IMG/VR virus record: IMGVR_UViG_3300042402_003952
Strand: one strand, 5' to 3'
Origin: a virus
Lineage: Duplodnaviria > Caudoviricetes
Length of the DNA stretch: 64,000 nucleotides
The translations under genes and the position numbers were made by a program. The notes beneath the pieces are model-generated. The model worked only from the letters and a program-made list of their open reading frames with translations, did not search any database and was not told the origin of the DNA. Below are positions 818 through 56,547 of the stretch, in pieces. Each line of letters opens with the position of its first letter. Positions within the stretch are counted from its first letter, which is position 1.

Positions 818-3191
818 ATGACTGCTTCAATCGCTTCACGCCGTTCTGGCGAAAACCTCTGGGAACAATTCTGTTCCTGGGTAACTTCAACCGATAATAG
901 ACTGTATGTTGGTTGGTTCGGAGTCCTTATGATTCCTTGCCTTCTTGCTGCTACAACTTGTTTTATTATCGCTTTCATCGGTGCTCCCCCTGTAGACATA
1001 GACGGTATCCGTGAACCCGTTGCTGGTTCACTAATGTATGGAAACAACATCATCTCTGGTGCTGTTATTCCAAGTTCTAATGCCATTGGATTGCATTTTT
1101 ACAGCATCTGGGATGCTGCTTCTCTTGATGAGTGGCTTTATAAATAATATTGGGTCACTTTAAATCGGGTGAACTGCTGGAAAGCTAAGTTCTTTATGAA
1201 ACACAAACATCACCTTACTCCAAAATATCTTGGTGGTTCTAACGAATCCCAAAATCTTGTAGAAGTTTCTACAACTCAACACGCTATGTTTCATTATTGT
1301 AACTGGCGTCTTTGGGGAAACGAAGAAGATAAGATTGCTTGGAAAGCACTTGCAGGATACTCTAAAAAAGAGGAAATAATTCATCAAGTTATTTCTCTTG
1401 CAGGTAAAAGAGGTGGTAAGGTTGCAAAAGAAAGCGGACAACTTCGGTCTGCTGCTCTTAAACAACCAAGAAGTGTAAGGCAAAAGATTGGTAAAAATCT
1501 TATCAACTATGCCTACAAAAATCCAAAGAATGCAACACAAGAAACTCTTACTAATAGAAAATACAGTAAAGTATTTCACATTTATGAAAAACTAACTGAA
1601 AGGACTATTGGTAATCATCTTGGGGATGTAGTTTTTAATCCAGAAGAAGATAAAACACTCAAAACTGTTTGTTCTATTATTCTGGAAAAATATGGGGTAA
1701 AAGTTTATCCTTCACATCTTAATAGTGTTGCTAATGGAAATAGACTTTTAACAAGTGGTATTTCTTGTAGTTGGATTTTAGAGAATATGCCAATCAGCAT
1801 CCAAGCCACAGACGATACTTCTGTGGAAGGTTCAGAGACTACTGGGTTCAACAAGCGTGTTGAGTAATACCAGATTAGCGCCCGACATCTTATAAAAAAT
1901 AAGATGAAGATATAGTCCAGTCCATATGGAAACATATGGTTCCCCCGACTGCTATAATGGGGGTCCTTTCCAACTTGTTGTCTTCCACTTCCTCATCGGC
2001 ATCTACTGCTATATGGGTCGTGAATGGGAACTCTCTTACCGTCTAGGTATGCGCCCTTGGATTATGGTTGCTTATAGCGCACCTGTTGCTGCTGCGAGTG
2101 CTGTATTCCTGGTCTATCCTTTCGGTCAAGGTTCTTTCTCTGATGCGATGCCTCTTGGTATCTCTGGTACATTCAACTACATGCTTGTATTCCAGGCAGA
2201 GCACAACATCCTGATGCACCCCTTCCACATGCTTGGAGTTGCTGGTGTCTTCGGTGGTTCTCTTTTCTCTGCTATGCACGGATCTCTTGTCACCTCTAGT
2301 CTTGTACGTGAGACTACAGAAAATGAGTCACAGAACTACGGATACAAGTTCGGACAAGAAGAAGAAACCTACAACATTGTAGCTGCTCATGGTTATTTTG
2401 GTCGCCTTATCTTCCAATATGCTTCCTTCAATAACTCACGTTCACTTCACTTCTTCCTTGCTGCTTGGCCCGTTGTAGGCATCTGGTTCACTGCTCTTGG
2501 TGTTTCTACAATGGCTTTTAACCTCAATCGTCGGGGTCCCGTCTTAGCAATTTGACGGTAAACATCGGGTGAACTGCTGGAAGCCCTCCATAAATGGGTA
2601 ATCAGCATCCAAGTCCAAAGTACACTTTGGAAAGGTTCAGAGACTACCTGAGGAGTTCAGTCTCCTTAATAACAGGAATAAGTGCCCGACATCCTAAATG
2701 GATGAAGATATAGTCCACTCCTTAAAGATGGTAAATTTAAGGGTTCAGTGCAACGGTTTTAATTTCAATCAGTCCATCATTGACTCACAAGGTCGTGTCC
2801 TTAATACTTGGGCAGATGTACTGAATCGTGCAGGTCTCGGAATGGAGGTCATGCATGAACGGAACGCTAGATTTGTTGGTGTTCTTGCTTAGGAATAAGC
2901 ATTAGTAAAATCGGGTTAAACGGGGAAACTCTCTATGAGACAATCCCGTACCAAGTCAGAAAGGGTTTAAGTTTTCTGAAAGGTCTAACGACTAGATGGT
3001 GAGTCCCAACAATAATCCATCCACGAATGCCCGACATCCAGAACGGATGAAGAGATAGTCTGAACTTACTAGTGATAGTAAGAAGTAGAGGATAAAGAAC
3101 CACTACGATAACAAAATTGCACAACTTCCCACTTGACCTTGCCGCAGCAGAAGCAACACCAGTTGCTCTTACTGCTCCCGCAATCGGTTGA
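818..3191 (+). CDS. psbA: photosystem II D1 protein; spliced exons 818-1137, 1952-2524, 2751-2868, 3120-3191 (360 aa)
   Basis: Exons join to 1083 nt giving intact D1 (DEWL|YNGG, AFNL|NGFNF, HERNA|HNFPLDLA). Each 5' exon ends in T and each intron ends in G. Confidence 0.97.
1139..1146 (+). promoter_or_regulatory. T4-type late promoter TATAAATA inside the 5' end of intron 1
   Basis: Exact T4 late consensus 50 nt upstream of the HEG ATG at 1196. Confidence 0.55.
1196..1867 (+). CDS. intron-encoded HNH homing endonuclease
   Basis: [33 protein letters not shown]-type motif; ATG 1196 is preferred over the track's GTG 1169, which lies in the intron core. Confidence 0.85.
   Translation: MKHKHHLTPKYLGGSNESQNLVEVSTTQHAMFHYCNWRLWGNEEDKIAWKALAGYSKKEEIIHQVISLAGKRGGKVAKESGQLRSAALKQPRSVRQKIGKNLINYAYKNPKNATQETLTNRKYSKVFHIYEKLTERTIGNHLGDVVFNPEEDKTLKTVCSIILEKYGVKVYPSHLNSVANGNRLLTSGISCSWILENMPISIQATDDTSVEGSETTGFNKRVE
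2525..2750 (+). mobile_element. group I intron 2 in psbA (226 nt, ORF-less)
   Basis: Core nearly identical to intron 1 (ATCGGGTGAACTGCTGGAA, AATCAGCATCCAAG, GGTTCAGAGACTAC, GAAGATATAGTCC); inserted in a Leu codon CT^C. Confidence 0.95.
2869..3119 (+). mobile_element. group I intron 3 in psbA (251 nt, ORF-less)
   Basis: AAATCGGGTTAAACGGGGAAAC, AATCCCGTACCAAG, GGTCTAACGACTAG, GAAGAGATAGTCTG; IGS GGTGTTCT pairs exon GGAACGCT; terminal G at 3119. Confidence 0.95.
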
Positions 3192-3278: not shown

Positions 3279-3800
3279 ATGAGAACCACGAAGATTTGTA
3301 GAACCTGCACACAAGAACTTCCTATCTCTGATTTTAGAGAAGGTCGTAGAAGATGTATTAGGTGTGAAGAAAAAACCTATGCAGAAAATTGGGCAAGTAA
3401 AACTCACATTACTTGCAACAAGTGTGGTTTAGAAAAACTTATTTCTGAATATTATAAAGGTCATAAGAGGTGTAAGGATTGTTACAGTAAAGACTATAAA
3501 GACAAAAAACCTTCTTATGATGATAAGAAAGACTATATGTTAAAGTATACTTATGGGCAGGATTTTGGATTAACTGAATATCAAAATCTTTTGCAGGAAC
3601 AGAATGAAGTATGTGCTATTTGTTTAAATCCAAATACTAATGGTAGGAAGGATAGTAATAATCTTTATGTAGACCACGATCATAATACTGGAAAGGTTCG
3701 TGGATTGTTGTGTAGTAACTGCAATAGAATGCTTGGACTAGTAGGAGATAATATCGGCACACTAACTAATGCAGTTAAATACTTACAAAAGCACCAATAA
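3279..3800 (+). CDS. free-standing endonuclease VII-family homing endonuclease (F-CphI-like)
   Basis: CAIC...LYVDHDHNTGKVRGLLCSNCN EndoVII motif, N-terminal CxxC repeats, located between psbA and psbD. Confidence 0.88.
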   Translation: MRTTKICRTCTQELPISDFREGRRRCIRCEEKTYAENWASKTHITCNKCGLEKLISEYYKGHKRCKDCYSKDYKDKKPSYDDKKDYMLKYTYGQDFGLTEYQNLLQEQNEVCAICLNPNTNGRKDSNNLYVDHDHNTGKVRGLLCSNCNRMLGLVGDNIGTLTNAVKYLQKHQ

Positions 3801-12864: not shown

Positions 12865-13541
12865 CATTCATTCATCATAATTACCTAGGTGATCTTGAAT
12901 TAGAAAAAAAAGAAAAAAATGGCATCCGTCTCTATAACCTACCAAGTGGAGCATGGGTGCCATCCATCACATCAGTGACTTCTTTTTATAATCGTGAGAT
13001 CTTTGTTAAGTGGAGAAAGAGAGTTGGACTTGAAGAAGCAAATCGTATTACTAAAAAGGCAACAGCAAGAGGTACTGATTTCCACCAAGTTTGTCAGGAC
13101 TATCTTGAAAACAAAGAAATGAACTGGGATGATTATCAACCACTAACAAAGTTCATGTTTCATCATGCTAAACCTTATCTTGACAAGATAAATAATATTC
13201 ATGCAATTGAAAGAACACTTTACTCTGAGTATCTTGGACTCGCTGGAAGAGTAGACTGTATTGCAGAGTATGAAGGAGAACTAGCAGTCATTGATTTCAA
13301 GACATCAGAAAAAATTAAACCAGAGGAATGGATTGAAAACTATTTTGTTCAAGAGATGTTTTATGCTGCTGCATATTACGAACTCACTGACATTCCTCCA
13401 GTCAAATTGATTACACTAATGGTCACTCCTGGAGGTGAGGTCAAAGTATTTGACAAAAGAAACAAATCAGACTATATTAAACTATTAGTTCGTTATATTA
13501 AAGAATTTGTATCTCACAATACTAGGCCAGATGGAGAATGA
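12861..13541 (+). CDS. PD-(D/E)xK exonuclease (Cas4/RecB-like phage exonuclease)
   Basis: PSITSV, GTDFH, AGRVDC, IDFKTS motifs. Confidence 0.88.
   Translation: MTFIHHNYLGDLELEKKEKNGIRLYNLPSGAWVPSITSVTSFYNREIFVKWRKRVGLEEANRITKKATARGTDFHQVCQDYLENKEMNWDDYQPLTKFMFHHAKPYLDKINNIHAIERTLYSEYLGLAGRVDCIAEYEGELAVIDFKTSEKIKPEEWIENYFVQEMFYAAAYYELTDIPPVKLITLMVTPGGEVKVFDKRNKSDYIKLLVRYIKEFVSHNTRPDGE
13450..13478 (+). promoter_or_regulatory. sigma70-type promoter upstream of gp33
   Basis: TTGACA-17-TATATT. Confidence 0.55.
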
Positions 13542-13788
13542 ATTAGAGAAAGTACTAGAAAGTAAATTTTTCTGTCCATCACGATTTGCACAAGAAATTG
13601 AACATCTTGTGCAAATAAATGTGGAGATGAATTATATTGACGCGATTATTCATTTCTGCGAACAAAACAATATTGATTTGGAATCAGTTCCTAAATTGAT
13701 TTCCAAACCATTGAAAGAAAAACTTAAGTATGAAGCAATGGAACTTAACTTTTTAAAGAGGAGTTCCAGAGCGAAACTACCCCTTTGA
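13531..13788 (+). CDS. gp33: late-promoter transcription co-activator
   Basis: F...IE...NYIDAII.FCE.N.I..E...KLISKPLKEK...EA..LN signature; position before gp59. Confidence 0.88.
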   Translation: MENELEKVLESKFFCPSRFAQEIEHLVQINVEMNYIDAIIHFCEQNNIDLESVPKLISKPLKEKLKYEAMELNFLKRSSRAKLPL

Positions 13789-13791
13789 TAA

Positions 13792-13809
13792 ATGATGCCG
13801 TTTGATTAA
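13792..13809 (+). pseudogene. orphaned original 5' end of gp59 (ATG ATG CCG TTT GAT TAA = MMPFD*)
   Basis: Matches the VVPFD start of the functional gp59 530 nt downstream. Confidence 0.7.
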
Positions 13810-13815
13810 CTCCTG

Positions 13816-13823
13816 TATAAATA
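13816..13823 (+). promoter_or_regulatory. T4 late promoter for the GIY-YIG gene
   Basis: TATAAATA, 25 nt before the ATG. Confidence 0.7.
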
Positions 13824-13848
13824 TTATTAGATTTATTTTAGTTTAATA

Positions 13849-14343
13849 ATGTATTACTGCTATGCTTATTTGCGTGAAGATGGAACTCCATATTATATTG
13901 GAAAAGGAAGAGGGCAAAGAGCCTATTTAAAACATCCTCGCGCAAATGGATTAGATTTGCGTCCGAAAGATAAAAATAGAATAGTTATTCTTAAAGAATT
14001 TGAAGATGAGATTTCTGCTTATCAGTATGAAATGGAAATGATAGAAAAATATGGACGCAAATGTGATGGAACTGGCATATTGAGAAATATGACTATTGGT
14101 GGTGAAGGAAATAAGTCTATTTTTAAAACTTATGAGCAAAGAAAACAAGCAGAAATTGAAAGAAAACGTAAATGGTATTATGATAATCAGGAACGTTTAA
14201 GGCAAAAAGCAGCAAAAATACTTGATGAAAACCGTGATGAAATTAATCGCAAACGCAGGGAACGACGCAACACAGAACCATATCGTTCAGAATATCTTGC
14301 TCGGCAACGTGAGAGGAGAAATAAGAAAAGTGGTTCCATTTGA
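13849..14343 (+). CDS. free-standing GIY-YIG homing endonuclease
   Basis: YCY...YIGKG...R and conserved E/N (AYQYE, LRNMTIGGEG). Confidence 0.88.
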   Translation: MYYCYAYLREDGTPYYIGKGRGQRAYLKHPRANGLDLRPKDKNRIVILKEFEDEISAYQYEMEMIEKYGRKCDGTGILRNMTIGGEGNKSIFKTYEQRKQAEIERKRKWYYDNQERLRQKAAKILDENRDEINRKRRERRNTEPYRSEYLARQRERRNKKSGSI

Positions 14344-32582: not shown

Positions 32583-33941
32583 ATGGATCCGAGATATTAT
32601 AGTGTTCTTAATGATGATTTGAGAACAAAATTAGAGCAATCAAATTCTTCAATTGAAGATTCTTCGGAAACAATTATAGAATTGGATGGCAAAAAGGCAC
32701 CATATGATGATATTATTATTTCTTTAGATAATGATATTTTAACTGAAGTAAATTCTGTTAATACCAAAATTATTGATGTAAGTAATGCTTATCAAGACCG
32801 AATTAATGTAGGTTGTAGGACAGATGTATTTTGGAGAAGAGTTGGTCTTGCAGGAACGGTTCATACTTTAGTTGCAACAAAACTTTCTCTTGCTGGATAT
32901 GCAGGAACTTTAACTGATGTTGAGTATTTTGATGGTGTTGGGTTTGTAACATATGATAATTATGATACATTTGGATATACGACAGAGAATGCATATGGAA
33001 TTAAATATTATGATGAACCAGTAACACAGGATATCGGTAATACGTTTGTTACTAGTTTTATTGGAACAATCAGTCCAGGAGAAAATAAACTTACGGTTCT
33101 TTCTGTTGTTGGATCTTCATCAACAACTGGAATTGCAACAGGACAACTAGTAATTTCTTCAAAAGATGGAGTTATTCCTTCTTCATCAAATATTATTGGA
33201 ATAGGGACGACAGCATTATCAAGATCTGTTTTAGGAATTTCGACTGGCTCTATTGTTAGTATTTTGACATTAGATGCAACAGCAACTGGTATTGCATCCG
33301 CACCAGAATCTAATGGATCTTTTGTAACTTTTACAGTCTTAACTTCCATAACTGAATTTGGGTTTGACGATTATGAAATTCAATCTGATAAAGATCCATA
33401 TTCACCACAAACGATTGGTATTATGACCTCGGGTAATATTGCTATCGGTGTTTCTGTAAAATATGATAATTCTGGCAATGAACCAAATGTGATTTCTTGG
33501 GACCCTGATTTATTTGATGATGAAGATCCGAGTACATTTGAACCAGAAGTTGGTGCAGGAGTTTATTACTTACCAGTCGGATTTACTTCATATCCAGTTT
33601 CATTGAGTGGACAAAGAGTTGCTGTTGGTTTTGCAACAACAGTCACAGATGCACAATTACCTACTATTCTAACTCTCGCCACATCTTGCCCAACAGAGGA
33701 AACAAACTTGACAAATGCTATTAACACACTAAATACTGCAAAGTCTGACATCTCTTCTGGTATTAGCACATTAAATTATAAAATTGATGTTGCTAATACT
33801 TTTAGAGAGCAGAGAAAAGAAATTCAATCTGAAATTTGGGGACTATCACAACAGATCGCATCATATCGTGCTGATATTATCACTTATAATAAAGCACTTA
33901 ATTATCTTGGAGTATCAACCGTCACGGATACAGTACTATGA
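32583..33941 (+). CDS. virion structural protein
   Basis: Long ORF after a TAAATA late motif; coiled-coil ends. Confidence 0.65.
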   Translation: MDPRYYSVLNDDLRTKLEQSNSSIEDSSETIIELDGKKAPYDDIIISLDNDILTEVNSVNTKIIDVSNAYQDRINVGCRTDVFWRRVGLAGTVHTLVATKLSLAGYAGTLTDVEYFDGVGFVTYDNYDTFGYTTENAYGIKYYDEPVTQDIGNTFVTSFIGTISPGENKLTVLSVVGSSSTTGIATGQLVISSKDGVIPSSSNIIGIGTTALSRSVLGISTGSIVSILTLDATATGIASAPESNGSFVTFTVLTSITEFGFDDYEIQSDKDPYSPQTIGIMTSGNIAIGVSVKYDNSGNEPNVISWDPDLFDDEDPSTFEPEVGAGVYYLPVGFTSYPVSLSGQRVAVGFATTVTDAQLPTILTLATSCPTEETNLTNAINTLNTAKSDISSGISTLNYKIDVANTFREQRKEIQSEIWGLSQQIASYRADIITYNKALNYLGVSTVTDTVL

Positions 33942-34567: not shown

Positions 34568-34774
34568 ATGAATCCTTATCGCATTAACTATAAAGCACTG
34601 AAACAAGAACCAGTGAAAACAACACCAGAGAATGTGAAGGAGGCAAATGAAAACCTGTTTTGTGCTCGTTGGAATTTGCCAACTGCTGCAAAGCACTGTG
34701 GAATGAGTGAAAAGGAAATGCGCTTGACATTCTTTGAGTATCTGAAGTATAATGATGTAACTTACAAAGTGTAA
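34568..34774 (+). CDS. hypothetical protein, possible HTH (WNLPTAAKHCGMS)
   Basis: ORF track. Confidence 0.65.
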   Translation: MNPYRINYKALKQEPVKTTPENVKEANENLFCARWNLPTAAKHCGMSEKEMRLTFFEYLKYNDVTYKV

Positions 34775-34782
34775 GTTTTTAT

Positions 34783-35064
34783 GGCGGTCTAGCCCAGCGG
34801 AAGAGGCAAACGACTTTAACAATTTGAGCACCACAGTTGGAAACTCTGTGCGTGAATCCTATCAAATTCGGGGAAACCTGTGAAATGGCAATCCCGAGCC
34901 AAGCAAGAGAAATCTTGAAGGTGTAGAGAGCAGTAGGTAGGAACCTAAATCCTTATGGATATGGTTAAGGGGTGCTCCAGACCACAAACAATCTTATGGT
35001 TGGTAGTGAAAACTATAGTGGTAAGAAAATCGTTCAAGGGTGGGTTCGAATCCCACGACCGCTA
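34783..35064 (+). tRNA. trnL: tRNA-Leu(UAA), exons 34783-34816 and 35026-35064
   Basis: Acceptor GGCGGTC/GACCGCT, anticodon stem AACGA/TCGTT, spliced loop CT T^AA AA, T arm GTGGG TTCGAAT CCCAC, discriminator A. Confidence 0.85.
34817..35025 (+). mobile_element. group I intron (trnL-UAA-like) in the anticodon
   Basis: 5' TAACAATTTGAG; AAATTCGGGGAAACC; GGCAATCCCGAGCCAAG; P3 TCCTATC/GGTAGGA; P7 GAGCA/TGCTC; P9 TAGT-GAAA-ACTA; terminal G. Confidence 0.88.
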
Positions 35065-35381: not shown

Positions 35382-35454
35382 GCTCCTAAAGCATTTAGTG
35401 GCGATGTACCTGACTTGTAATCAGGAGAGGATGGTTCAATTCCGTCTGGGAGCT
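35382..35454 (+). tRNA. trnT: tRNA-Thr(UGU)
   Basis: GCTCCTA/TGGGAGC acceptor, CCTGA-CTTGTAA-TCAGG anticodon arm, GATGG-TTCAATT-CCGTC T arm. Confidence 0.9.
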
Positions 35455-35802: not shown

Positions 35803-36456
35803 ATGAAATCAGATTTTTATATAGATAGAGTAGGTAAGGAAGAAATCAAAGAACTTCTTTATACCTACCATTATCTTAAAGACGAATCAAAGGACTTCAA
35901 ATCGCATTATAACTATGGCCTTTTCAGATCCTCGGTTTCTGATATTTTGCGCGTTGGTGGTTGCTTGGGCAGTTGTATCTTCACTGGTTTACCCGTCCCA
36001 GAAATAGCCGTAGGTGCTTTTGGATTAGAAAGAAATCAACAAGAAGGAATATACGAACTCTCAAGACTTTGTATACATCCAGAAGTCCAGAAAGAAGAGT
36101 ATAATATCACATCTTGGTTCGTCAGTCGTTGTATAAGGAGATTTAGAAAAGATGCCCGCGTTTCTTGTATTCTTAGCTACGCTGATGCTAATCACCACCT
36201 TGGAACTATATACAGAGCTTGCAATTTTACTTATCACGGTCTAACAGATAAGAAATCTGACTTTTGGATTAAGCAACCAAATGGATCATTTATCAAACAC
36301 TCAAGAGGTCCTATCAAAGGATTAGAAGGTGAGTGGAGAGAAAGAAGTAGAAAACACAGATACTTGATGATATTTGATAAGGAACTAAAGAAAAAGTTGA
36401 CATGGGAAGAGCAGAAGTGGTATAATAATCAAGACGATACTGAATCGTTACAGTGA
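35803..36456 (+). CDS. Mom-like GNAT DNA base-modification enzyme
   Basis: YHYL, YGLF, ELSRLC, SWFVSRC.R, ILSYAD...HLGTIYRACNF.Y.G and terminal KHRY motifs. Confidence 0.7.
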   Translation: MKSDFYIDRVGKEEIKELLYTYHYLKDESKDFKSHYNYGLFRSSVSDILRVGGCLGSCIFTGLPVPEIAVGAFGLERNQQEGIYELSRLCIHPEVQKEEYNITSWFVSRCIRRFRKDARVSCILSYADANHHLGTIYRACNFTYHGLTDKKSDFWIKQPNGSFIKHSRGPIKGLEGEWRERSRKHRYLMIFDKELKKKLTWEEQKWYNNQDDTESLQ

Positions 36457-36532: not shown

Positions 36533-37807
36533 ATGGGTATTCAAATAAACGGAACTACCGATACTATTTCTGCAACTGATGGTGGTTTGGTTGTTTCTGG
36601 ACAACAACTGACTGGAGTAACCAATCTTCAGATTAGTGGTATTACTACAGTTGGTGCTGGATCAACTAGTGCTCCATCAATAACTCCAACAGGAGACAGT
36701 AATACCGGAATATTCTTTCCTACTGCTGATACCATTGCATTTGTTGAAGGTGGCGTAGAGTCCGCAAGGTTTGATAGTAATGGTAGATTTGGCTTGGGAA
36801 CTTCTGCGCCTAGCGCAACCTTGGATGTTGTCGCCCCTGCTGGACCTGGTGCCACAAACTTCCGATTTGCTGCTCCAGACAACCACATTCTTAGCTTGCA
36901 ACGCATTGCTCCTGCTGCAAGCCCAGGTAATTTAAATTTCCAAGTGTCTACGTTTGGCGCTGGAAATATCAATGCCGATAACACTCTGACACTTCAATCT
37001 GGCACTAATACTTCGATTGTTTTTAATACCTCTGGAGCAAACGAACGCGCCCGCCTCGACAGCTCCGGCAGATTGTTGGTTGGCGCATCTTCGAGTCGTG
37101 CTGTTTCAGACTCTTCAGGAAACGGTCCTCAAGGGCACATACAAATCGAATCTGCAAATAGTGGCGCACTAATAAGCATCATCTCGGCTGGCACGGCTGA
37201 TGCTTTCCGCGCTGGAACTTTAAGTCTCGGACGACACAGAAACTCCACAGTAGGCGGCACACCAACAGTAGTTCAAAGCGGAGATACTTTGGGCGCTATT
37301 TGCTTTGCGGGCGGAGATGGAACCGACATGCTCGCAAATGGCGCGTCTATTGTTTGCCAGGTAGACGGCACCCCCGGCGCTGACGACATGCCGGGCAGGC
37401 TTGTTTTTTCTACGACGGCCGACGGAGCAAGTCTTCCTACAGAGCGGATGAGAATCGCTCAAAATGGTGTTATTACTATTCAAAATGGTGCTGTTGCTGT
37501 TATTGGTACATTGACTGATGGCGCAACAATTACACCAGATTTTGCTGCAGATTGTAATTTCACCGTTACGTTGGGTGGATCACGTACAATTGCTAATCCA
37601 ACCAACATTACCGCCGGACAAAGTGGTAGTATTTTTATTGTCCAAGATGGAACAGGAAGTCGAACGTTGTCTTGGGGTAGTTCCTGGGATTTCCCTGGCG
37701 GCACTGCACCAACCTTAACGACAACTGCTAATGCTGTAGATCGTGTCGATTATGTTGTTCGCACCTCTACTTCTATCCATACCGTTTTTACTGCAAACTA
37801 CTCATGA
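36533..37807 (+). CDS. tail fibre protein
   Basis: GDSNTGIFFP, ERARLDSSGRLLVG, TERMRI fibre repeats; C-terminal DF...NF.VTL domain. Confidence 0.8.
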   Translation: MGIQINGTTDTISATDGGLVVSGQQLTGVTNLQISGITTVGAGSTSAPSITPTGDSNTGIFFPTADTIAFVEGGVESARFDSNGRFGLGTSAPSATLDVVAPAGPGATNFRFAAPDNHILSLQRIAPAASPGNLNFQVSTFGAGNINADNTLTLQSGTNTSIVFNTSGANERARLDSSGRLLVGASSSRAVSDSSGNGPQGHIQIESANSGALISIISAGTADAFRAGTLSLGRHRNSTVGGTPTVVQSGDTLGAICFAGGDGTDMLANGASIVCQVDGTPGADDMPGRLVFSTTADGASLPTERMRIAQNGVITIQNGAVAVIGTLTDGATITPDFAADCNFTVTLGGSRTIANPTNITAGQSGSIFIVQDGTGSRTLSWGSSWDFPGGTAPTLTTTANAVDRVDYVVRTSTSIHTVFTANYS

Positions 37808-40194
37808 GTATCTTTCATAACAACAGTCTTATTGGATCCAGTGGTCAAGGTGGATATACTATTTCTAGAAGCCTGCGGTTCAACTCAGCCGACTCGGCTT
37901 TTCTCAGCCGCACCCCCGCATCAGCCGGCAACCGCAAGACGTGGACCTGGGCGGGGTGGATGAAGCGGTCCAGCTTTGCCACCTTTCAGATGATTTTCCA
38001 GGCTGGAAACGTAAACGCCAGCGAAATATTCCTGTATTTTATTGATGGCACTCTGCGTCTTTATCAGGACACCTCAAGCAGCGTCAATTTCAGCGTTGCG
38101 ACCACAGGCGATCTGAGAGATCCTTCCGCGTGGTATCACTTTGTTATTGCAGTTGACACAACGCAAGCGACCTCCACGAACAGGGTCAAGCTCTACGTGA
38201 ATGGCGTTGATCGGACGAACACTGCCGACACGTTCCCCTCACTGAACCTGGACACCTACATCAACTCCACGCAGCAGCATTTCATTGGGACTCGCGTCGC
38301 CCAGATTCAGTACCTCGGTGCTTACCTTGCCGACATACACTTCATCGACGGCCAAGCGCTAACCCCCACCAGCTTCGGTGAGTTCTCCGCCACCACCGGC
38401 GTGTGGGTGCCGAAGGCGTATACCGGCACCTATGGCACCAATGGGTTCCGCCTGACCTTCGCGGACAACTCCGCAGCCACGGCCACCACGCTGGGCAAGG
38501 ATGCCGCTGGCAGCAACAACTGGACGCCGAACAACCTATCCGTCACCGCTGGTGCAGGCAACGACAGCCTCGTAGACGTTCCCGTCAACGGCAGCGAGGT
38601 TGATACTGGACTCGGGGCGCAGGTGCGGGGGAATTACTGCACGTTGAATCCCTTGGACAGAGGGACGGCCGGGGCCGTAGGTATTGTTTTATCCAACGGA
38701 AATCTTAACGCTGTTACTCCTTCTGATGCAATTACGAGTGTACGTGGAACAATAGGTGTTTCATCCGGCAAGTGGTATTGGGAAGTAACACCAACTGTTG
38801 ATGGAAGCACGGCGATGATTGGAGTTGGACTGATTTCTGCCAACTTGAATAGCTATGCAGGCGTAAACGCAAGTTCTTGGGGGTATTACGCCGATGGTAA
38901 TAAGTACTTTCAAAACATTAGTTCATCCTACGGATCTGCTTATGGTAATGGCGACGTAATTGGCGTCGCGCTAGATGTGGATTCTGGAGCTCTGACATTC
39001 TATAAGAATGGAGTTAGTCAAGGGCAGGCTTTTACTGGGCTTAGTGGAACTTTATTCCCAATGCTAGGCGATGGTGGTACAATTGCTGCAGTTGCATTAA
39101 CCGCCAACTTCGGCCAACGCCCATTCGCCTACACCGCCCCCAGCGGCTTCAAGGCGCTCTGCACGGCAAACCTGCCCGCACCGACGATTACACAGCCATC
39201 CACGGTGATGGATGTGAAGCTCTGGACGGGGAATGGCAGCACGCAGACTATTTCGGGATTGGGGTTTAGCCCGGACTTTGTGTGGCTAAAGGGGAGAAGT
39301 GTACCCTATCCACATGGCCTGCATGATACCGTTCGCGGAGTAAACAGATTCCTAATCTCATCAACAACAGATGCCGAGATAGTCAACGAGCAAGATGGCT
39401 TTATATCTGCGTTTACTTCAGATGGTTTTACGATCTCTCCGGGAAGCAGGTCTTCTGCCACTTTTAATCAGAACAGCGCTACCTATGCAGGCTGGTGCTG
39501 GGACGCCGGCAGCTCCACCGTCACGAACACACAAGGCTCCATCTCTAGTCAGGTGAGGGCTAATGCAAGTGCGGGGTTCTCTATTGTTAAATGGAACGGA
39601 ACCAGTGCGAACGCCACTATAGGTCACGGACTTGGGATCGCTCCGCAGTTGATTATTCGTAAATATACAAATGATACTGACGACTGGTACACCTACCATG
39701 TAAGCGCCGGCACCAATAAATACTTCAGCCTCAACCGAACCACGGAAGCGCTAACAAGCACGAGTATTTGGCAGAATACAGCTCCGACATCCTCCATTTT
39801 CTATATCGGTGGCGGCAATAACAATAGCAATTCGATTGCTTACTGCTTCGCCCCAGTAGCCGGGTACAGCGCGTTCGGCAGCTACACCGGCAACGGCAGC
39901 ACGGATGGTCCGTTTGTTTATACAGGGTTTAGGCCGAGGTGGGTGATGATTAAACGCTCAGATAACGTAGGAAGTTGGGGCATTCTTGATACTGCTAGAA
40001 ATACTTTTAACGTTCAAGATAAATTACTCTGGTCAAACCTGTCAGACGCTGAAGGCACATTCACTATTTTTGATGTTCTTTCCAATGGTTTCAAGCTCAG
40101 GGAATCAACTAACGGATACAACACGTCTGGTGGCACCTACATCTACGCCGCCTTCGCAGAGTCGCCGTTTGGCCTCAACAACCGCGCCCGCTAG
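37804..40194 (+). CDS. tail fibre / receptor-binding protein with LamG-like and SPRY domains
   Basis: SRSLRFN, RDPSAWYH (LamG-like), SSGKWYWEV...IGVALD (SPRY), GFSPDFVWLK. Confidence 0.8.
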   Translation: MSIFHNNSLIGSSGQGGYTISRSLRFNSADSAFLSRTPASAGNRKTWTWAGWMKRSSFATFQMIFQAGNVNASEIFLYFIDGTLRLYQDTSSSVNFSVATTGDLRDPSAWYHFVIAVDTTQATSTNRVKLYVNGVDRTNTADTFPSLNLDTYINSTQQHFIGTRVAQIQYLGAYLADIHFIDGQALTPTSFGEFSATTGVWVPKAYTGTYGTNGFRLTFADNSAATATTLGKDAAGSNNWTPNNLSVTAGAGNDSLVDVPVNGSEVDTGLGAQVRGNYCTLNPLDRGTAGAVGIVLSNGNLNAVTPSDAITSVRGTIGVSSGKWYWEVTPTVDGSTAMIGVGLISANLNSYAGVNASSWGYYADGNKYFQNISSSYGSAYGNGDVIGVALDVDSGALTFYKNGVSQGQAFTGLSGTLFPMLGDGGTIAAVALTANFGQRPFAYTAPSGFKALCTANLPAPTITQPSTVMDVKLWTGNGSTQTISGLGFSPDFVWLKGRSVPYPHGLHDTVRGVNRFLISSTTDAEIVNEQDGFISAFTSDGFTISPGSRSSATFNQNSATYAGWCWDAGSSTVTNTQGSISSQVRANASAGFSIVKWNGTSANATIGHGLGIAPQLIIRKYTNDTDDWYTYHVSAGTNKYFSLNRTTEALTSTSIWQNTAPTSSIFYIGGGNNNSNSIAYCFAPVAGYSAFGSYTGNGSTDGPFVYTGFRPRWVMIKRSDNVGSWGILDTARNTFNVQDKLLWSNLSDAEGTFTIFDVLSNGFKLRESTNGYNTSGGTYIYAAFAESPFGLNNRAR

Positions 40195-53292: not shown

Positions 53293-55575
53293 ATGACTAT
53301 CATAAGACCGAATAGTATATCTGGTATTACTTCGATTACCGCTCAGAGTGATACGATTAACATTTATAAGTCTGACGGAACACTGTCTGGTTTACAACTA
53401 AATGGAGTTAATTTTAATACAACATCAGGAATCAGTACATTTTCTAATGTTGTAGTTGCTGATGGATCTGCTTCCACTCCATCTTTAAAGTTTTCTTCAA
53501 GTAGCACAACTGGATTATATTCTCCAGGAGCAAATCAATTTGGTATTGCTACGAATGGAACAGCAAGAATTACAATAGATTCAAATGGAAATGTAACCAT
53601 TGCAAATACTATTAATGTTCCTTTAGGTAGTGCATCTGCTCCTGCATTTAGTTTTACAGGTGATAGCAACACCGGCATCTACTCCCCCGGCGCAGACCAA
53701 GTAGCCATCTCGACTAATGGCACGGGGCGATTGTTTGTTGATGCGAGTGGGAATGTTGGGATCGGAACGAGCGCCAATAACGTCCTCGATCAGATTTCAT
53801 CTGCACGACCTTTGCTTGTCCAAAGTGCTAGTAGCAGTACGACTATTGGCGGCAGTGCAAATGCGATCACAATTTGCAACTCAGATACCACTGCTTCTAA
53901 CACATCGCAAATCAATTTTGCGGCGATATCTGGACCCAGCCCGCTTCAGTTCAGCTCGGCAATCATTAGTGCAATACACGGTGCGCGTACAAACGGACAG
54001 TACCCAACTGGGTCGCTTGTCTTCCTGACCAGCACAGCAACAAACTCCGCACCTACCGAAAAACTTCGGATAACAAATGACGGCAAACTAGGTCTGGGGA
54101 CTAGTAGTCCTGGCGTTTCTTTTGACGTTCAAGCTGGAGCTACCTCTGACTGCGTTGCAATCCGAAGCACGTTAAACACAAATGCAGGTGCAGTTGGTGG
54201 CATTGCTCTCTACGGGGGTAATTCCTCTGGAACATCAGTTGCGTATGGCGGTTTCTATGGGAACATTCAGTCCAATACTGCCGGAAGCCATAGCGGTGGG
54301 CTGCGCTTCTATATCGCTGACTCTGGCTCATTCTCAGAGAAGATGCGCCTTACCCCAACTGGACTAGGGATTGGCACTACGAGCCCTAGCTTCAAGCTTC
54401 ACTCATACGATACTGCCGCTGCTCAAGGTTTCTTTAACGGCTGGTCATCTGGCGGCACTTACGACGCCGCTGGAGCCATCCGGTTTGGAAATCAAACTGG
54501 GTACCAAGGTCGGGTGGATTACGATCCAAGCGGCAATACGAACTTTATTTTTGAGAACAGTTACTCAAATGGGGCAATTAGCTGGAAAATATACGGTGGA
54601 GAAAAAGCTAGGCTAACGCCTACTGGGCAGCTTTTAGTTGGCACGTCTACTGCCTTTAGGTCGGATTCATTTATTCAAGTAAAAGGCGGAAACTCCAGCA
54701 GTGTTGGATCGCTTGCGCTGGCATCTACCTCCAATAACCCAACTTCTGGCGCGGATCTTGGTTTTATCACCATTACAGACACCGGAGGAAACAGGGGCGC
54801 ATCTATTGTTGCAACTGCAGACGGTAACTGGACTTCAGGTACGAGTCAGCCAACGCGATTAGCGTTATCCACTACCGCCGCCGATGCGAGCAGTCCGACG
54901 GAGCGGATGAGGATTACGAGTGATGGGTATGTTTACATCGGAAAAACAACAGGAAGCACGTCTGTAGCTGGCACTGTGTTTTTGCAAAACTACGCAGTAA
55001 TAACAAGCACTGCAACAAACAGCGGGGACAGATGCTTGATACTTAACCGCCAATCGGCAGATGGAGACTTGCTTCAATTCTGGCAGGCCGATACTCAAGA
55101 AGGCGCAGTCTCTGTCTCCGGCACTACTGTGACCTACGGCGGCGGTCACCTTGCCCGTTGGTCGCAACTGCCAAATGCTGAAGACCCATCCACACTCCTT
55201 AAGGGCACTGTCCTGTCAAACTTGGATGAGATGTGCGAGTGGGGCGAGGAAGACAACGAGCAGCTCAACCGCACCAAAGTGAGCGATGTTGAAGGCGATC
55301 CAAATGTGGCTGGCGTGTATGTGTCAGCGTCGCCTACTGATGATGGTCCGCTGGATTTTTGGTTGGCGATGACTGGCGACATGATCATCCGCATTGCTGA
55401 AGGTGTCACCGTACAGCGTGGCGACCTGCTGATGTCCGCTGGTGACGGCACCGCCAAGCCCCAAGACGATGACATCGTTCGCAGCAAAACCATCGCCAAG
55501 GTGACTTCCAACCACGTCACCTGCACCTACGACGATGGGAGCTACTGCGTTCCCTGCGTATTGATGGCTTGCTAG
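53293..55575 (+). CDS. tail fibre protein with probable C-terminal chaperone domain
   Basis: GDSNTGIYSPGADQ, EK(M/L)R repeats; C-terminal GGHLARWSQL...GDLLMSAGDG..PCVLMAC domain. Confidence 0.8.
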   Translation: MTIIRPNSISGITSITAQSDTINIYKSDGTLSGLQLNGVNFNTTSGISTFSNVVVADGSASTPSLKFSSSSTTGLYSPGANQFGIATNGTARITIDSNGNVTIANTINVPLGSASAPAFSFTGDSNTGIYSPGADQVAISTNGTGRLFVDASGNVGIGTSANNVLDQISSARPLLVQSASSSTTIGGSANAITICNSDTTASNTSQINFAAISGPSPLQFSSAIISAIHGARTNGQYPTGSLVFLTSTATNSAPTEKLRITNDGKLGLGTSSPGVSFDVQAGATSDCVAIRSTLNTNAGAVGGIALYGGNSSGTSVAYGGFYGNIQSNTAGSHSGGLRFYIADSGSFSEKMRLTPTGLGIGTTSPSFKLHSYDTAAAQGFFNGWSSGGTYDAAGAIRFGNQTGYQGRVDYDPSGNTNFIFENSYSNGAISWKIYGGEKARLTPTGQLLVGTSTAFRSDSFIQVKGGNSSSVGSLALASTSNNPTSGADLGFITITDTGGNRGASIVATADGNWTSGTSQPTRLALSTTAADASSPTERMRITSDGYVYIGKTTGSTSVAGTVFLQNYAVITSTATNSGDRCLILNRQSADGDLLQFWQADTQEGAVSVSGTTVTYGGGHLARWSQLPNAEDPSTLLKGTVLSNLDEMCEWGEEDNEQLNRTKVSDVEGDPNVAGVYVSASPTDDGPLDFWLAMTGDMIIRIAEGVTVQRGDLLMSAGDGTAKPQDDDIVRSKTIAKVTSNHVTCTYDDGSYCVPCVLMAC

Positions 55576-55609
55576 GGCAAGTAGTCCTACTCGAAAGTCA
55601 TCATACACA

Positions 55610-55638
55610 TAGTGTGGTAATTACACCTTATCACACTA
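55610..55638. other. candidate tyrosine-recombinase core site
   Basis: TAGTGTGGTAA - TTACACC - TTATCACACTA: 11-bp arms, 10/11 inverted match, 7-bp asymmetric spacer. Confidence 0.55.
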
Positions 55639-55680
55639 ATTACTTTATGTTACAATATAGACTAATAAATCTACTAAATT

Positions 55681-56547
55681 ATGGCAAAAACATTGAAGAA
55701 ACTGTGGAAGGAGTTTGTTAATGAAAGGAAAGTTTCTTTATTTCCTACATCATTAACATCAGATTACAGTCAGGTTACTAAATGGATTTCTAGGTGTCCA
55801 ATACAAGACATCAAAAAATCAAAAGAAATAATGAATTGGATTTTGAGTGAGCAACCTGTTCTTTCTTCTAGACGAGTTGCAATGTACGTCAAATCTATGT
55901 ATCGGTGGGCATCTGAAGAAGAAAATGGATATTTTAAAAGGAATCCATTACAAAATTTTAGAATGCCAAAGGCACCTCAAACTGATGAAGAAATTATAGT
56001 AATACCAAGAGATGAGATTGATATTGTAATTCAAGAATTAAGAAAGAAAAGAACCTATAAAAGTGTAAATTGGTCTTGGTATACAGAGTTCATGCTTCAA
56101 ACTGCAATGAGAACAGGTGAAGTTCGTGCTTTAATGCGGAAAGATATTAAGGAAGATAAAATTCTTGTTCATCAAAATTACACACTTACTCATGGTCTTA
56201 AAAATAGCACCAAAACAAACAAAAAACGTTGGGTTCCATTAAATAAAAAATGTCTTGATATTTTGAATAACTTACCAAATCAAAATGAATTTATTTTTCC
56301 TTGGGATAGAATTGCATTTCAAAGTTACTTCAGAAAAAAACTAAAACCTCTGTATGATAATAAAGTTATTAGTCATTTATATAGACCTTATGATTGTCGT
56401 CACACAGCAATTAGTCATTGGATAGAATCTGGAATTCCTATTCCACAAGTAGCTAATTGGGCAGGAAATACTAGTGAAATTATTTTTAAACATTATTGCA
56501 ATGTAACTCAAGATTATCAGATTCCTGAAATTAAGTATTCTAAATAA
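55681..56547 (+). CDS. tyrosine recombinase (phage integrase family)
   Basis: TAMRTGEVRAL (R), KT (K), PYDCRHT (YxxR variant), AGN..II.KHY (catalytic Y). Confidence 0.88.
   Translation: MAKTLKKLWKEFVNERKVSLFPTSLTSDYSQVTKWISRCPIQDIKKSKEIMNWILSEQPVLSSRRVAMYVKSMYRWASEEENGYFKRNPLQNFRMPKAPQTDEEIIVIPRDEIDIVIQELRKKRTYKSVNWSWYTEFMLQTAMRTGEVRALMRKDIKEDKILVHQNYTLTHGLKNSTKTNKKRWVPLNKKCLDILNNLPNQNEFIFPWDRIAFQSYFRKKLKPLYDNKVISHLYRPYDCRHTAISHWIESGIPIPQVANWAGNTSEIIFKHYCNVTQDYQIPEIKYSK

Follow-up and report, generated by a model that had tools for sequence, protein, structure and literature searches.

The 64,000-nt stretch of viral DNA analysed here, called the window in the following, carries what is very probably a functional tRNA gene of the phage that reads the leucine codon UUA (and probably UUG) and is interrupted by a mobile IC3-type group I intron without an ORF. 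The initial annotation had placed a split tRNA(UAA) at positions 34783-35064 of the plus strand, and ARAGORN with introns allowed reproduced these coordinates exactly, the UAA anticodon being split between U34 and A35 by an intron of 209 nt (gactt/intron/aaaat). Joining of the exons returned the same 73-75-nt cloverleaf in ARAGORN. Exon 1 (34783..34816, plus strand) begins with G1 of the tRNA at 34783 and comprises the acceptor 5' strand GGCGGTC, a 3-bp D stem, the anticodon stem AACGA and C32, U33 and U34; its bases are also present in 62 intronless alleles. Exon 2 (35026..35064, plus strand) comprises A35, A36, A37 and A38, the anticodon stem UCGUU, the 5-nt variable loop CAAGG, the T arm and the acceptor strand GACCGCU, which is followed by A73 at 35064; CCA is not encoded, and a 31-mer of this exon is identical in 15 intronless viral alleles. 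The intron itself (34817..35025, plus strand) was delimited by ARAGORN and is group I and IC3-like according to Rfam, alignment and fold. No splice sites other than U34/A35 give both a 7-nt anticodon loop and a terminal G. Thus, the position of the intron at U34^A35 of a phage tRNA(UAA), as claimed initially, is upheld by ARAGORN and by the helix covariation described below.

Standard searches pass over this gene. A default ARAGORN run over the window missed the split tRNA gene and reported only an uninterrupted tRNA-Thr(UGU) in the neighbourhood (35382..35454, plus strand), which is also found by Rfam. A local search with the Rfam model Intron_gpI (RF00028) matched 34807-34972 with 32.2 bits (E = 2e-6), which is below the gathering score of 50 bits, and for this reason the Rfam scan of the whole window at gathering thresholds gave nothing at the split tRNA locus. 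This model is known to score bacterial tRNA introns too low: its seeds include no bacterial intron, and cut-offs of 18-20 bits have been used for tRNA introns (Williams 2020, bioRxiv 10.1101/2020.01.27.920355).

The structure of the intron was assessed with an alignment of 24 sequences, which consists of the window intron with 10 nt of each exon and 23 related tRNA introns. The helices were drawn by hand on this alignment, and controls were obtained by sliding the 3' partners by 1-3 columns. Standard pairs occupy 95.2% of the 1236 pair cells, as compared with 29-44% in the slid controls, and the covariation score is 0.40 as compared with 0.04-0.07. Compensatory changes on both sides were found in 34 of the 55 pairs across the 24 introns. 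The observed pairing is far beyond chance. Helices 3-10, which form the P3-P8 core, are 88-100% paired, with compensatory changes in P3, P6, P7 and P8, and an unconstrained minimum free energy (MFE) fold regains P3-P6, P8 and the P9 region (z = -2.1).

The individual elements, all on the plus strand, follow the group I plan. The internal guide GAG (34826..34828) pairs with exon bases C32-U33-U34 (34814-34816) to give P1. All 24 aligned introns have the U.G wobble of P1 at the 5' splice site, and 23 have the two adjacent pairs. P1 of the window intron is short (3 bp plus 2) because the first intron base is a U, which faces another U next to the U.G pair; most relatives have an A-U pair there. 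The P2 hairpin (34832..34850) is closed by a GAAA tetraloop (L2), and five of its six pairs have changed on both sides. The same is true for six of the seven pairs of P3, in which UCCUAUC (34857..34863) pairs with GGUAGGA (34936-34942). The P4-P5-P6 domain (34867..34917) is supported by covariation in the alignment and its helices are regained by the MFE fold; P4 (34867-34872 with 34893-34898) is nearly invariant among the aligned introns, P5 lies at 34877-34888, and P6 (34904-34917) has a GAAA loop and compensatory changes in three of four pairs. P7 is formed by GAGCA (34928..34932) and UGCUC (34973-34977) in a pseudoknot with P3, and would be the expected guanosine-binding helix. All of its cells are paired and three of its five pairs show compensatory changes. 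At two P7 positions the window intron has G-C and C-G, where 22-23 of the 24 introns have C-G and U-A. This confirms the compensatory P7 changes noticed initially (GAGCA/TGCTC), since the common GACUA/UAGUC has been replaced by GAGCA/UGCUC through two double changes relative to the other introns. The P8 hairpin (34943..34965; helices 9-10 of the alignment) contains CCUAAA...UAUGG, which appears to resemble the 11-nt GAAA-tetraloop receptor. Finally, the P9.0 stem (34981..35022; ACCAC 34981-34985 with GUGGU 35018-35022), for which compensatory changes and the MFE fold agree, encloses the P9 hairpin (34989-35002) and the P9a hairpin (35004-35015, GAAA loop), each with compensatory changes of its own, and the terminal guanosine (omega G) at 35025 is invariant in the last intron column. 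Judged by its sequence, the intron has the look of a canonical IC3 group I intron and occupies the classical trnL site. The structural model of this subgroup is the IC3 intron of the Azoarcus tRNA-Ile(CAU).

The gene is preceded by a promoter-like site of the sigma-70 type (TTGACA-18 nt-TATAAT; 34724..34753, plus strand) that matches the consensus in 12 of 12 positions and is predicted to be functional; it ends 30 nt upstream of tRNA position 1. The same layout is present in a related contig (L292), and 14 of 62 relatives have TTGAYA...TAnnnT in the 60 nt that precede the tRNA. In the window, the promoter-like site probably drives transcription of the pre-tRNA. The intron would then fold into the P1-P9 ribozyme with exon C32-U33-U34 paired to the guide GAG, free guanosine would attack after U34 at the U.G wobble, and the 3' OH of U34 would attack after the terminal G at 35025, by which U34 and A35 are joined and the UAA anticodon is created. 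Host RNase P, 3' trimming and CCA addition would give the finished 73-nt tRNA with its short variable arm. We infer these steps of transcription and splicing, as well as leucine charging of the product and the route of mobility discussed below.

The window is a lake-type T4-like cyanophage and its host is a cyanobacterium. It carries a PhotoRC-II RNA, psbA, psbD, transaldolase and 6-phosphogluconate dehydrogenase genes as well as T4-like baseplate, tail and fibre genes. A megablast search of the 28-42 kb region against cultured phages gave no match and hence no close cultured relative. The PhotoRC-II RNA is located at 685-778 and is followed by a psbA gene that is split by three group I introns according to Rfam at gathering thresholds (hits at 1674-1939, 2515-2742 and 2859-3082). 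A stop-to-stop frame of 239 codons (1148-1867) without a Pfam match precedes the second psbA exon frame and apparently lies inside the first psbA intron, and an ORF with an Endonuclease VII domain (3279-3800) is found just downstream. Moreover, two stretches of the tail-fibre region have a G+C content of 52.5% (37804-40194) and 48% (~54000-56000), as compared with ~33-39% elsewhere in the window. The first encodes a 796-aa protein that is closest to fibre/SPRY proteins of Methylophilales, Roseobacter and Pelagibacter podophages (37-47% identity). These features suggest that the stretches may be laterally acquired receptor-binding modules.

The tRNA gene is part of the tail gene region, where its neighbours are small phage-family ORFs (phrog_1920 upstream, phrog_4134 downstream). 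Downstream of both tRNAs, an ORF at 35803-36456 belongs to the Mom family (PF25680, 1.8e-21) and has weak matches to HNH-endonuclease PHROGs. This Mom-like/HNH-like ORF was rejected as an intron-linked homing endonuclease because homologues with 72-78% identity adjoin intronless alleles. No homing endonuclease was found to be associated with the tRNA intron, which itself contains no ORF.

The short tRNA(UAA) is uninterrupted in 62 of the 63 viral contigs in which its 5' half was found, and many of these intronless contigs share the flanking genes of the window in the same order. In the single exception (L285), this site is occupied by an intron with 87% identity to the window intron, and the flanking proteins are 85-88% identical. 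Furthermore, a metagenome scan for the exon-intron junction uncovered two more contigs, one that differs from the window at two positions of the 282-nt gene (L312) and one that is identical to it up to the contig end (L313). On the evidence of these sequences, in which independent assemblies agree, the intron is a rare and secondary occupant of a conserved phage tRNA gene, as follows from the host family being normally uninterrupted in cyanomyoviruses. Intron-plus and intron-minus alleles thus coexist in one syntenic slot of related cyanophages. That the locus could be host DNA, a caveat of the initial annotation, or an assembly chimera has next to no probability: phage structural and phage-family genes flank it on both sides, in dozens of viral contigs intronless alleles are embedded in the same order of genes, and the intron-bearing gene is present in three independent assemblies. 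Host contamination is excluded by these observations, and no evidence for either version of this explanation was found.

The rarity of the intron allele (one of 63 viral contigs, the window and two metagenome contigs) would also be expected if the intron were decaying and no longer able to splice, this tRNA copy being a pseudogene. The sub-threshold Rfam score and the U-U opposition beside the splice-site wobble point in the same direction. However, the core helices are all intact and the departures of the window intron in P7, P3 and P2 are compensated. Of the two differences in L312, one is an A-U to G.U change that keeps the pair in P2 and the other affects an unpaired base, the exons match functional alleles with a single, compensated difference in the acceptor stem (C7-G66), and the promoter-like site is intact. 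Decay is therefore a very improbable explanation, and we continue to regard the gene as functional.

The host tRNA deserves separate consideration. After splicing it would have 73 nt, a 5-nt variable loop and a 3-bp D stem (ARAGORN, joined exons), whereas all other tRNA-Leu(UAA) hosts found, at least 10 viral and ~60 cellular genes, have 83-90 nt and a long variable arm. The host tRNA is thereby ruled out as a homologue of trnL. Members of the short family occur in the 63 viral contigs mentioned above, their acceptor and T stems covary, and an intronless allele aligns over its full length with the Rfam tRNA model (RF00005; 58.5 bits). On this pattern of conservation and covariation the short-arm family is real and under selection. 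It has members in cultured cyanomyoviruses. For instance, PSSM7_128 of P-SSM7 is annotated as tRNA-Leu with the codon UUA, and a database search also matched annotated tRNA-Leu genes in P-RSM6 and S-CREM1. The tRNAs of P-SSM7 and S-SRM01 share the 73-nt architecture, the anticodon loop CUUAAAA and A73 with the window tRNA; the cultured cyanomyovirus copies examined are uninterrupted, whereas the window copy bears the intron. In the freshwater Synechococcus phage S-SRM01 the short-arm tRNA(UAA) is unannotated (L311 697-769; MW015081.1 ~33604-33676).

The anticodon, the discriminator A73, the annotation of relatives and the use of TTA make a leucine identity of the short tRNA(UAA) plausible. None of the 22 distinct short alleles has lost A73, a base that is compatible with leucine and not specific for it. 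In the window TTA is the commonest leucine codon (30.6% of leucine codons, 20.8 per 1000 codons). The initial statement that TTA is frequent therefore stands, and its corollary that supply of the tRNA depends on splicing holds for the phage-encoded copy only, since the host presumably has its own tRNA-Leu. G1.U72 was considered as a leucine-specific mark common to the long-arm phage tRNA-Leu genes and was discarded, as it is equally frequent in tRNA-Ile(UAU) of the same contigs. The identity falls short of proof because the class II arm, which bacterial tRNA-Leu species all have, is missing and G1.U72 is not isotype-specific. It is conceivable, though unlikely, that the intron is real and the short-arm tRNA(UAA) does not accept leucine, so that it would carry another amino acid or serve as a decoy or spare against tRNA-targeting host defences. 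The bona fide tRNA-Leu(UAA) genes found are all of the long-arm type, and no other isotype in these phages closely resembles the short tRNA (best 54/73 matches), which leaves its derivation from one of them without a candidate. In P-SSM7 the copy lies in a cluster of tRNA-Leu(UUA), tRNA-Ile(AUA) and tRNA-Arg(AGA) genes directly upstream of an annotated tRNA ligase gene (L310; GU071103.1 117039-118116). In T4, such a tRNA ligase setting is linked to repair after anticodon-nuclease attack, and the P-SSM7 cluster hints at a possible function in tRNA repair or counter-defence. However, A73 is retained throughout the short alleles while other isotypes of the same contigs keep their canonical discriminators, and mis-reading of the top leucine codon, at 21 per 1000, would be very costly. 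Moreover, the E. coli LeuRS is not known to need the long arm or the anticodon. We therefore retain the reading of the gene as a leucine tRNA gene.

Relatives of the intron were collected by a core-motif scan that returned at least 117 viral contigs and by a second motif scan with at least 120 rows, the sampling being biased to one core motif. In at least ~30 viral contigs the intron lies within a tRNA gene, in most cases Leu-UAA or Arg-UCU, the two isotypes for which the labels were checked; labels of other split genes are raw ARAGORN output. The viral tRNA introns listed are always located after C32-U33-U34 and mostly end with GUGGUAAG. Among the matches listed, the best 23 global matches to the window intron are all viral (77-88% identity), the closest being located in phage Leu-UAA and Arg-UCU genes (82-88%), and the nearest cellular introns by pairwise identity are proteobacterial and acidobacterial (75-81%). 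In a phylogenetic tree the window intron groups with those of L285 and L036 (97/86), a long stem leads to a separate clade of cyanobacterial trnL introns (100/100) that contains no viral introns, and a further clade (96/97) comprises the proteobacterial and acidobacterial trnL introns. Among the viral introns there are no fewer than four switches of host tRNA type, some of them within strongly supported sister pairs. For example, L052a in an Arg gene pairs with L108 in a Leu gene (100/99), and L036 in a long-arm Leu gene with L285 in a short-arm one (100/98). The initial idea that phages carry and diversify such introns is thus borne out by at least ~30 viral contigs and several tRNA hosts.

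One of these contigs, L052, has two split tRNAs in one cluster, an Arg-UCU with an intron of 205 nt and a Leu-UAA with an intron of 237 nt (12957-13238 and 13545-13868), and the two introns fall in different clades of the tree. Two loci labelled tRNA-Phe(GAA) by ARAGORN (L036 746-1043 and L059 5665-5962) are long-arm tRNA-Leu(UAA) genes by the U(-1)/omega-G logic; the label arises because ARAGORN shifts the intron boundary by one base. Thus, intron-tolerant tRNA callers need a check of the splice sites. Split genes were also found in two database phages. The cultured jumbo Agrobacterium phage Atu_ph07 contains an 84-nt long-arm tRNA-Leu(UAA) with an encoded CCA and a 278-nt group I-like intron at U34/A35 (L307 353-714; MF403008.1 ~112890-113251, minus strand), where only hypothetical-protein ORFs and no tRNA are annotated. 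This phage could be a tractable system for the splicing of phage tRNA introns. In LR756501.1, a 735-kb uncultured huge phage, a tRNA-Leu(UAA) is split at the same site by a 205-nt intron that is ~70% identical to the window intron (L308 543-833, ~190243-190533, minus strand; no tRNA annotated).

With a cyanobacterial host (psbA and psbD are in the window), it has to be considered that the intron is a cyanobacterial trnL(UAA) intron that was captured from the host and has since diverged, which would be a host-to-phage transfer of an ancient lineage with no phage pool involved. Indeed, the cyanobacterial and plastid trnL(UAA) introns resemble the window intron in the U34/A35 site, the guide GAG on CUU, the IC3-type core and the lack of an ORF, and the conserved core blocks ...GGCAAUCCNGAGCCAAGC...AAGGUGUAGAG... 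are common to both. The insertion site CUU/...G/AAAA is the same in the ~60 cellular tRNA-Leu(UAA) introns fetched. In addition, an approximately unbiased (AU) test of a tree in which the window intron was constrained to the cyanobacterial clade gave p = 0.29 in a careful tree with a weak backbone, which has the window intron and the cyanobacterial clade in the same weakly supported half; AU tests on a quick tree were uninformative, as the constrained trees scored better than the free search. Only shallow relationships are claimed here because of this weak backbone and the AU value. Thus, with respect to the phylogeny with cyanobacterial trnL introns proposed in the initial annotation, the window intron lies in a viral clade (97/86), and a placement as sister to the cyanobacterial introns is neither supported nor rejected by the AU test (p = 0.29).

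However, several observations argue against capture from the host. The body of the window tRNA (73 nt, short arm) is unrelated to the cyanobacterial trnL, an 83-87-nt long-arm tRNA-Leu. The cyanobacterial trnL introns are longer (220-312 nt), form a tight clade of their own without viral introns and are at most ~74% identical to the window intron over the core. They end with GGAGAATG, whereas the window, viral, proteobacterial and acidobacterial introns end with GTGGTAAG. A BLAST search with the window intron gave no match in two cyanobacterial genomes that hold the classical intron, and the best match in 401 cyanobacterial genomes was 74% over 138 nt of the core, the top hits being tRNA-fMet(CAU) introns of 226-644 nt and not tRNA-Leu introns (L301-L304; genomes G361, G196, G366 and G097). 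We therefore consider direct capture from a cyanobacterium improbable. The preferred reading is that the source of the intron would be a phage-borne pool of close relatives in long-arm tRNA-Leu(UAA) and tRNA-Arg(UCU) genes, all of which follow C32-U33-U34 and would fit the same guide. The initial description of the intron as trnL-type stands for the insertion site and the core; the host tRNA is not trnL, and the nearest introns are phage-borne.

The cellular introns that come closest, those in proteobacterial and acidobacterial tRNA-Leu(UAA) and tRNA-Arg genes, are similar in length (~200-250 nt), in the 3' end GUGGUA(A/C/U)G, in the GAAA tetraloops L2 and L9 and in the receptor-like motifs in P8 and P5, and the Azoarcus tRNA-Ile(CAU) intron probably shares these traits. 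They differ from the window intron in that they reside on cellular chromosomes in normal long-arm tRNA-Leu genes and form their separate clade (96/97). Another relevant group comprises the introns in phage protein genes, such as T4 td, nrdB and sunY, psbA of S-PM2 and the DNA polymerase genes of SPO1 and Bastille. They have the self-splicing class, the occurrence in virulent phages and the presence/absence polymorphism in common with the window intron. In contrast, they interrupt mRNAs and are often accompanied by homing endonucleases, while the window intron interrupts a tRNA anticodon and has neither an ORF nor a linked nuclease. As of 2014, protein-coding genes were the only known location of phage group I introns, although phages have many tRNA genes (Hausner et al. 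2014, PMC3984707). Later, 'enigmatic' unclassified tRNA introns were described in the Lak megaphages, and phage tRNA introns were called previously unreported (Devoto et al. 2019, PMC6784885). Like the window intron, the Lak introns are found in phage tRNA genes and are present or absent among related genomes; they are unassigned to a class, and the one that was detailed was predicted to encode a tRNA, whereas the window intron is a full-size, classifiable group I ribozyme. For bacteria, 21 types of tRNA intron have been catalogued (Williams 2020, bioRxiv 10.1101/2020.01.27.920355). A full-text search of the literature yielded no publication that describes a group I intron in the tRNA gene of a phage.

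Together with the at least ~30 viral contigs and the two database phages, the locus shows that phages carry many tRNA group I introns. Group I introns in the anticodon loop are a textbook case in the debate on ancient versus mobile introns, and the trnL(UAA) intron is in wide use as a marker of vertical inheritance. One and the same intron lineage is found in no fewer than three tRNA hosts, and the survey shows phages to hold, and apparently to shuffle, a pool of tRNA introns that has so far been described only in bacteria and plastids. Phage tRNA repertoires are under-counted because standard tRNA finders and Rfam thresholds miss split genes, as at the Atu_ph07 locus. As a tentative extension, which we consider possible though doubtful, the phage pool of IC3 introns may be large and in active exchange, may hop between tRNAs with C32-U33-U34 (long- and short-arm Leu-UAA, Arg-UCU) and may be a main vehicle behind the patchy and non-vertical distribution of introns in bacterial tRNA-Leu(UAA) and tRNA-Arg genes, in which case the trnL site would be a re-invaded hotspot rather than the mark of a single inheritance. 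The phage introns could thus provide a concrete vector, and a testable system, for the lateral spread of tRNA introns.
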